Assembly (NCBI GenBank): GCA_951406725.2
Contig: OX597834.1
Span: 37,634,001 to 37,698,000, forward strand
DNA: 64,000 nucleotides
Direction: 5' to 3'
From: Octopus vulgaris
Lineage: Eukaryota
In this document: piece by piece, positions 38,727 through 39,472 of the stretch
Layout of the letters: each line of letters begins with the position of its first letter
Numbering within the stretch: the first letter of the stretch is position 1
Program-made: the position numbers and the translations under genes
Notes under the pieces: model-generated
Databases searched by the model: none
What the model was told of the DNA's origin: nothing
The model's input: only the letters and a program-made list of their open reading frames with translations

Positions 38727-38897
38727 AGTCGCCATGATAGATCGTTAGCCACTACACACATTTTTTTCTCTCCTTGTTTCTTTCTGTAGAAGAGCGTAGG
38801 CTCGAAACGTAAAAGACTTTTTCTATTCCTGAGCGTTATACTAATACATCTGTTTGTTTTGTACACCACCTGCCTTCGTCTTTTGGTTTTTTTTCGT
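38727..38897 (+). mobile_element. PLE-like element family B, with hammerhead-like motif at 38779-38816
   Basis: TCTTT-CTGTAGA-A-GAGC-GTAG-GCTC-GAAA-CG-TA-AAAGA. Confidence 0.75.
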
Positions 38898-39040
38898 GTT
38901 GTGCAACCCTTTATCCACTCAGAAGAAACTTATGCACAGGATCTTCTTGGACTCTTGAAATATCTGCGTAAGAAGCCGTCTTACTCCACCACAAACAGAC
39001 ATTAAATAAATATATATATATATATATATATAATATATAT

Positions 39041-39237
39041 AAGTTAATCCAAACAAGAAAGCACAAAAAAACCCCACAACAACGCGAGAACGTGGAACAA
39101 ATATAGTATTATTGGACGCTCAGGAAAGAAGGAAAGATGGAGGGTTTAACGTTTCGAGCGGAGCTCTTCGTCGGAAACATAGGAGAAGGAAAGATCCAGA
39201 GAAGGGAAGACAGAGGAAAAAAATCGCCAACGGTATA
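39041..39237 (-). mobile_element. TA-flanked PLE-like element family A, with hammerhead motif at 39144-39178
   Basis: GTTT-CCGACGA-A-GAGC-TCC-GCTC-GAAA-CG-TT-AAAC on minus strand; terminal stub repeated at 6679-6716. Confidence 0.75.
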
Positions 39238-39255
39238 CGAAAGGATATATATATA

Positions 39256-39470
39256 GGGGGAGAGTTTACGAAAAAACAAAAGACGAAGACAGGTGGTGTA
39301 CAAAACAAACAGATGTATTAGTATAACGCTCAGGAATAGAAAAAGTCTTTTACGTTTCGAGCCTACGCTCTTCTACAGAAAGGGACACAGAAAAAAACAA
39401 GGAAGAAACAAGGAGAGAAAAAAAAAGAAGTGAAAAAATGAGTGTAGTGGCTACCAATCTATCATGGAGA

Positions 39471-39472
<2 letters not shown>
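39256..39472 (-). mobile_element. PLE-like element family B (inverted copy), hammerhead-like motif at 39347-39382
   Basis: Near-identical reverse complement of 38727-38897; TA tracts on both sides. Confidence 0.75.

Follow-up and report, generated by a model that had tools for sequence, protein, structure and literature searches.

Penelope-like minimal hammerhead motifs with a family-wide uridine at position 6 in Octopus vulgaris DNA

Introduction

Metazoan Penelope-like elements (PLEs) carry minimal type I hammerheads in their pseudo-LTRs – recognizable by a U-rich 5′ flank, a palindrome and the lack of a stem III loop (Cervera and de la Pena 2014, PMC4209133). According to the available parts of that paper, these hammerheads are slow and occur mostly as solo dispersed copies, with opposite-strand pairs 100–700 bp apart. 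All 56 representatives in its Figure S3 have U4 and A6, in a search that required that core.

Several other described systems approach the locus reported here. PAc (Poseidon of Anolis; Frangieh 2024, PMC11167929) has a PLE hammerhead that cleaves only with its protein present, AT-rich targets, and an insertion end downstream of the hammerhead. Hydra-clade and Naiad PLEs have been described from Octopus (Craig 2021, PMC8557442). The same source describes TA targeting for Neptune, Hydra and Naiad, notes that Hydra hammerheads are longer in stem III and have CUGA as their core, and reports that Naiad elements multiply without canonical hammerheads. Animal non-LTR retrozymes (PMC7229834; bioRxiv 10.64898/2026.07.22.740005) are non-coding and PLE-related and form tandem arrays (units of 170–400 nt) with mostly canonical type I hammerheads. 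Natural changes in the core are also on record: the A6C hammerhead of phage Bcep176 cleaves slowly, being weakly active in Mg2+ and preferring Mn2+, and a natural U4C variant keeps low activity and supports viroid infection (Perreault 2011, PMC3088659; Naghdi 2020, PMC7151607).

Here we describe two repeat families, A and B, from a 64-kb window of Octopus vulgaris DNA – the window being the whole stretch that was analysed. Both resemble the PLE minimal hammerheads in their short stem I, extra base, G10.1-C11.1 pair, 4-bp stem II, palindrome and U-rich flank, but B differs by a family-wide U6 and A by a mostly C4 core. Judged by eye, the one of the 56 published representatives that appears most similar to A and B is the Neptune motif of Acropora digitifera (PMC4209133). 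The (TA)n surroundings of A and B match the targets of the Octopus Hydra-clade and Naiad PLEs, whereas the Hydra-1_oBim motif differs from both families (PMC8557442). PAc belongs to a different group, the Poseidon clade, and the available text that demonstrates its protein-assisted cleavage mentions no position-6 change (PMC11167929). Like retrozymes, A and B are non-coding and PLE-related with a type I hammerhead, but they are solo, minimal and TA-flanked, and we found no tandem array of 170–400-nt units at their places. The Bcep176 change is to C rather than U and concerns a single phage sequence with measured activity, whereas B is a high-copy, multi-species family whose activity is putative.

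Results

Four minimal hammerhead motifs lie in the window

The 64-kb window contains four hammerhead motifs of the minimal type I seen in PLEs. These four – B1, B2, B3 and A – are exactly the matches to a strict minimal-hammerhead pattern, which was designed after the motifs had been seen and is free at positions 6 and 7. The pattern gave 0 matches in 100 of 100 block-wise Markov resamplings of the window. Rfam hammerhead models gave no match at gathering score, and none at E ≤ 10 in 38600–39600. Pattern scans of metagenome and viral contigs returned 0 hits; a looser pattern gave 8 matches, which we rejected as chance, all 8 being in GC-rich DNA without hammerhead context. The features are as follows.

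6680–6717, minus strand: 38-nt stub of a family-A 3′ end between TA tracts, without hammerhead
20729–20885, plus strand: B3, an older or different-subfamily B copy, ~80% alike; C3 at 20765, core CCGUUGA (C4 and U6)
38727–38891, plus strand: B1, a family-B copy found by blastn to B2 and alignment; a homologous stretch whose true 5′ boundary may lie further upstream
38779–38816, plus strand: B1 minimal hammerhead; stem I of 5 bp, C3 at 38784, core CUGUAGA, U6 at 38787, extra A, stem II GAGC/GCUC, GAAA, ACGU palindrome; predicted cleavage after A17 at 38811
38827–38848, plus strand: downstream motif CCTGAGCGT..TAATAC, common to A and B
38892–39005, plus strand: 114-nt extension that follows B1, present once in the window and possibly representing a longer PLE tail
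39011–39032: (TA)n tract, a likely target site
39040–39244, minus strand: family-A copy between two TA tracts
39144–39178, minus strand: A minimal hammerhead; stem I of 4 bp, C3 at 39174, core CCGACGA (C4, A6), extra A, stem II GAGC/GCUC, GAAA, ACGU; predicted cleavage after U17 at 39148
39246–39255: (TA)5 between A and B2
39256–39472, minus strand: B2, a family-B copy inverted to B1, with TA tracts at both ends
39347–39382, minus strand: B2 minimal hammerhead; C3 at 39378, U6 at 39375, N7 at 39374, H17 at 39351, core CTGTAGA
39475–39512: (TA)n at the 5′ end of B2

All four hammerheads have C3, G5, G8, A9, G12, A13, A14, A15.1, U16.1 and H17, together with an additional A separating positions 9 and 10.1, the G10.1-C11.1 pair, and stems I and II; none has a stem III loop. 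Position 6 is U in the three B copies and A in family A. Position 4 is U in B1 and B2 and C in A and B3, meaning that the family A core is also non-canonical. B1 and B2 are identical from C3 to H17 (28/28) and in 77 of 79 columns downstream. B3 ends in (TA)9 at 20886–20903, and family A is represented in the window by its one hammerhead copy and the stub.

Much of an initial annotation of this locus is borne out by these coordinates: the order B1(+), extension, (TA)n, A(-), TA, B2(-), (TA)n, the T at position 6 in all three B copies (20761, 38779 and 39347), and the downstream CCTGAGCGT..TAATAC shared by A and B, which in B3 takes the variant form CCAGAGCGT. Its description of the B stems as intact holds for B1 and B2 and fails for B3. 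The ACGU palindrome (15.1–16.1), which forms stem III of a dimer, is present in three of the four copies; B3 has ACAT, which breaks its dimer stem III.

The window as a whole is AT-rich animal DNA, rich in microsatellites, with one abundant short interspersed repeat. That repeat occurs at 28299–28420 and ~20 other places, 70–95% alike, and is tandem at 23600–23954 and 43681–43905; copies at 28297 and 47546 gave loose hammerhead-like matches that fail the strict pattern, as do the remaining loose-scan matches (17520, 51833 and others). At 51790–51845 on the plus strand, a hairpin is followed by a GCTCGAAAC stretch like a hammerhead 3′ half, without a 5′ core and single-copy in the window. On the strand opposite B1, a one-mismatch copy of CCTGAGCGT sits immediately upstream of that copy (38703–38711, minus); it could represent an inverted fragment of a related element or a chance match. 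We also observed a degenerate tandem repeat on a TGACGTCA-containing unit at 37400–37950 (TRF period near 90 at 37461–37660), a young GC-rich minisatellite at 53849–54038 (52-nt unit, 3 copies, 98% alike), and a broken LINE reverse-transcriptase fragment in two frames at 14793–15654 on the plus strand, whose weak RVT_1 match (E 0.00039) is below the cut-off.

U6 is the family-wide state of B

We compared A plus B2 (39045–39470) with four public runs at 80% likeness, a threshold at which families less than 80% alike drop out. Matching contigs numbered 44,725 in X1 and 2,688 in X15 (both organism A) and 5,104 in X11 (organism E). X1 is possibly the source of the window; X15 and X19 are guessed to be RNA and were not taken as evidence of expression. 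All shares below are of contig (Logan) depth, which is not equal to copy number.

Canonical A at position 6 of B accounts for 0.45% of depth in X1 (18,450/4,094,119), 0.18% in X15 (222.5/126,165) and 0.26% in X11 (907.6/343,792). The neighbouring N7 varies by 17%, 32% and 79% in the three contig runs, which demonstrates that the depth method is able to detect variation there. Because the A6 share is like that of four other minor changes in X1 (0.07–0.56% of depth), it corresponds to a level of decay and marks no subfamily. Changes from U6 to C or G are absent from the variant rows listed (40 of 87); since every row listed reaches at least 30.5% in some run, we infer that the remaining rows lie below ~30%.

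The raw-read run X22 was excluded from these shares as probably another organism or repeat: nearly all of its 449 reads fall on a purine-rich stretch, and the 5 reads on the B core, from 2 starts, all have A6 and each carry at least 14 other differences. Using the 60-nt B1 core against four runs, we retrieved 8,663, 4,507, 5,656 and 154 contigs (organisms A, D, E and B, respectively), the listed records carrying 4–11 other letters. At least three downstream subfamilies recur among the loose ends in runs of three organisms, and one matches B3.

These results establish A and B as very abundant repeat families and U6 as the family-wide state of B. A B consensus with A6 would have contradicted the initial annotation; at less than 0.5% of depth in all three contig runs, from two organisms, A6 is not the consensus. 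Set against the 17–79% at the next column, the same value supports its proposal that the family amplified with a non-canonical core.

Variation within the core and the question of cleavage

Among the rows listed, the only B variants above 30% between C3 and H17 are at N7 (A/U/G) and H17 (A/U), with H17 A→U at 2%, 12% and 47% in the three contig runs. N7 and H17 are the positions that the hammerhead consensus leaves free. The chance that two variable sites both fall on free positions is 1/378, rising to 15/378 when the 4 loop bases are treated as free – a post hoc calculation in either form. Downstream of the B core, 8 columns in 76 nt exceed 30% among the rows listed; the other 22 core positions have 0 variable columns versus ~2 expected at the downstream rate, a difference that is not significant alone.

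In family A, the core variants among the rows listed are at position 4 and H17. Position 4 (39173, minus strand) is C in ~59–75% of depth – about two thirds – and U in 25–41% across three runs, and B3 combines C4 with U6. With this polymorphism the lineage has a second variant of the uridine turn. H17 of A changes from U to C at 19% in X1; the organism E column also has 32% G, at low depth and possibly from other families, and counts against constraint because a G there would not cleave.

Between A and B, 21 of 28 columns are shared in the core versus 41–44 of 87–88 downstream, and the fourth (outer) stem I pair, C-G in B and G-C in A, is compensatory. B1 and B3 show little contrast (24/28 identical in the core versus 62/80 downstream), and G16.2→A in the palindrome reaches 3.6–6.8% of depth. 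Taken together, the sequence comparisons make a modest, post hoc case that the hammerhead fold may have been under selection after U6 became fixed.

Beyond the core, the CYGAGCG of the shared downstream motif is kept in A and B amid ~50% divergence, its Y varying between C and U (8–92% by run). Either base leaves the motif complementary to G12 and the 3′ strand of stem II, at a predicted pair probability of 0.01–0.24. It might act as an off-switch, form a helix that joins ends, or serve as a promoter or protein signal. Permuted hammerheads are described in the available text of PMC10085705; we rejected the motif as a second core half, as it has no G8-A9.

Folding predictions place the B monomers in an inactive form, U6 pairing with A15.1 and extending a rod, and A has a comparable misfold. 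On the other side stand the natural A6C and U4C variants, the slowness of PLE minimal hammerheads in general and the protein dependence of PAc, and we judge the chances that the B hammerhead cleaves, slowly, to be roughly even. An appreciable but lesser probability attaches to a dead relic – A6U having killed the ribozyme in the B source, the PLE spreading without cleavage, and the motif surviving through recency or as a promoter or protein-binding signal. Data available for a type III hammerhead scanned by mutation count in favour of a relic: CUGA-region single and double mutants are all low in activity except a C3-G8 swap (PMC9901934). PAc RNA with a dead hammerhead inserts normally in vitro, and the available text reports that no RNA-seq ends were found at the PAc cut site (PMC11167929). 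Combined with the amplification of Naiads, such insertion implies that a crippled core does not prevent a family from amplifying without rescue. The B1/B3 differences (4/28 in the core versus 18/80 downstream) are also no strong contrast. Against a dead relic stands the constrained pattern itself, in which common variation falls on N7 (three alleles) and H17 (A/U among the rows listed) across subfamilies and two organisms. On balance, a weakly active variant is slightly more likely than spread without self-cutting.

A more specific form of activity strikes us as doubtful: a fixed U6 lineage, with or without C4, may have given up the CUGA uridine turn and yet cleave, with a protein or CYGAGCG..UAAUAC replacing A6.

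A and B resemble PLE pseudo-LTR ends

Contig depth peaks over the hammerhead and the 3′ part and falls to ~3% at the 5′ block, a profile of 5′ truncation in which the 3′ end is defined and lies a short way past the hammerhead. A, B2, B3 and the A stub each border (TA)n at the 3′ end, B1 adjoins TA after its 114-nt extension, and the loose-end consensus at the B 3′ end shows TA; with 150 TA runs in the window, TA is a common neighbour. We found no match to a PLE reading frame (RT plus C-terminal GIY-YIG) in the flanks of B1 and B3, where the copies are short. Twelve read-through frames gave no relevant Pfam match, and one upstream frame was without a match. A short frame upstream of B3 (20690–20740, plus strand), which we take to resemble the end of a PLE endonuclease, has no Pfam match. 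For the 54-codon open frame at 38841–39002 after B1, one search gave an 18-residue match to a repetitive 492-aa protein, which we rejected, and another gave no match.

As no PLE frame was found near any copy, the case for a PLE origin is built on the anatomy of the RNA together with the TA flanks. On these grounds, the reading that A and B would work like PLE pseudo-LTR ends is well supported; their placement in the Neptune clade is a lead only.

The same evidence bears on a different origin, in which A and B would be a short non-autonomous SINE- or retrozyme-like element with an inherited hammerhead-shaped hairpin serving as a structural or promoter signal. We consider this improbable. It would fit the lack of a nearby PLE frame, the single point at which B1 and B2 homology starts, and the 3′-to-3′ layout of these two copies, which is not the usual inverted PLE structure with its inverted copy at the 5′ end (PMC8557442, available sections). 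However, the drop to ~3% depth at the 5′ block is as expected for 5′ truncation, the minimal-hammerhead anatomy is PLE-typical, and the tandem arrays and canonical stem I/II contacts of retrozymes are absent. The 5′ block that B1 and B2 share at ~3% depth, along with their 105/107 likeness over the core and downstream, makes a shared origin or homogenisation of the two likely.

The cluster is likely a by-product of insertion

The initial annotation suggested that B might be rescued in A/B heterodimers, joined through a shared stem III palindrome. B2 and A do lie on the same strand, 204 nt apart, and would be transcribed before the antisense B1 arm; both families carry the ACGU palindrome, and the inner three stem I pairs (UUU/AAA) are interchangeable. 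But a cross-family stem I consists of 3 A-U pairs versus 4–5 pairs within a family, and imposed double-hammerhead energies – all of which lie above the unconstrained cofold minima – are -4.5 kcal/mol for A/B1 and A/B2, compared with -7.3 when A pairs with itself and -13.9 to -16.1 among the B1/B2 combinations. The palindrome is a general feature of PLE minimal hammerheads rather than a speciality of A and B, so its sharing carries no weight.

Depth is no more favourable to joint action. B far outweighs A in organism E (588,654 versus 41,657 summed over the cores, a crude ~14-fold), X1 depth, in the millions elsewhere, is down to 168,000 where A and B join, and no piece bridging A and B is present among the 24 contig pieces listed (of 52,573). 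The full cluster transcript is predicted to fold into a long duplex (-346.8 kcal/mol, z -29) in which B2 is buried on the antisense B1, which does not support the cluster as a working unit. Since a PLE with a dead hammerhead inserts in vitro (PMC11167929, available text), B needs no rescue. A transient cis interaction between the co-oriented B2 and A is conceivable, though no observation indicates one. We therefore regard it as very improbable that the A core cuts the B site in a double hammerhead and that clusters are working units; the three-copy cluster probably arose as a side effect of copies inserting into TA repeats.

Discussion

The family-wide core change is real and testable, and the cluster and heterodimer reading is unlikely. 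We favour, at about an even chance, an account in which A and B are 5′-truncated ends of Neptune-like Penelope elements and B, with its family-wide U6, keeps a B/B-dimer fold that cleaves slowly with protein assistance. An autonomous PLE elsewhere would copy the RNAs into (TA)n by target-primed reverse transcription, and insertions would leave short 3′ ends finishing ~90–100 nt after the hammerhead. TA at the edges of an insertion would allow later copies to land beside earlier ones, building a cluster without joint function. B1 and B2 probably share an origin or were homogenised as an inverted pair, with A entering the TA spacer. A6U would have become fixed in the B source element before the subfamilies split, and a weakened CUGA turn could be tolerated because cleavage need only be slow and protein-assisted and insertion is independent of it.

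We found no natural A6U hammerhead in the literature searched, in which the sole match for A6U and hammerhead concerns twister ribozymes and the matches listed for the core strings include no natural case; the survey by Lunse et al. 2017 of many thousands of PLE hammerhead variants may cover such cores. The octopus and cephalopod hammerhead literature searched contains no description of families A and B, and ribozymes are absent from the main text, as available, of two octopus or cephalopod repeat papers. Motif searches in the available supplements of PMC8557442 and PMC13282606 gave no octopus match, in files where line breaks can hide matches and, for PMC13282606, the repeat library lies outside the file.

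Apart from being a likely source of long double-stranded RNA, the three-copy cluster is of minor importance. The U6 family matters more widely. If it still cleaves, B would be the first natural A6U hammerhead, of a class that CUGANGA-based searches miss; the core consensus would widen at a near-invariant position, and a large class would have escaped descriptor searches. Should B be dead, it would provide in vivo evidence of massive amplification without cleavage, matching the in vitro behaviour of PAc. Family B is a natural experiment on why PLEs keep hammerheads.
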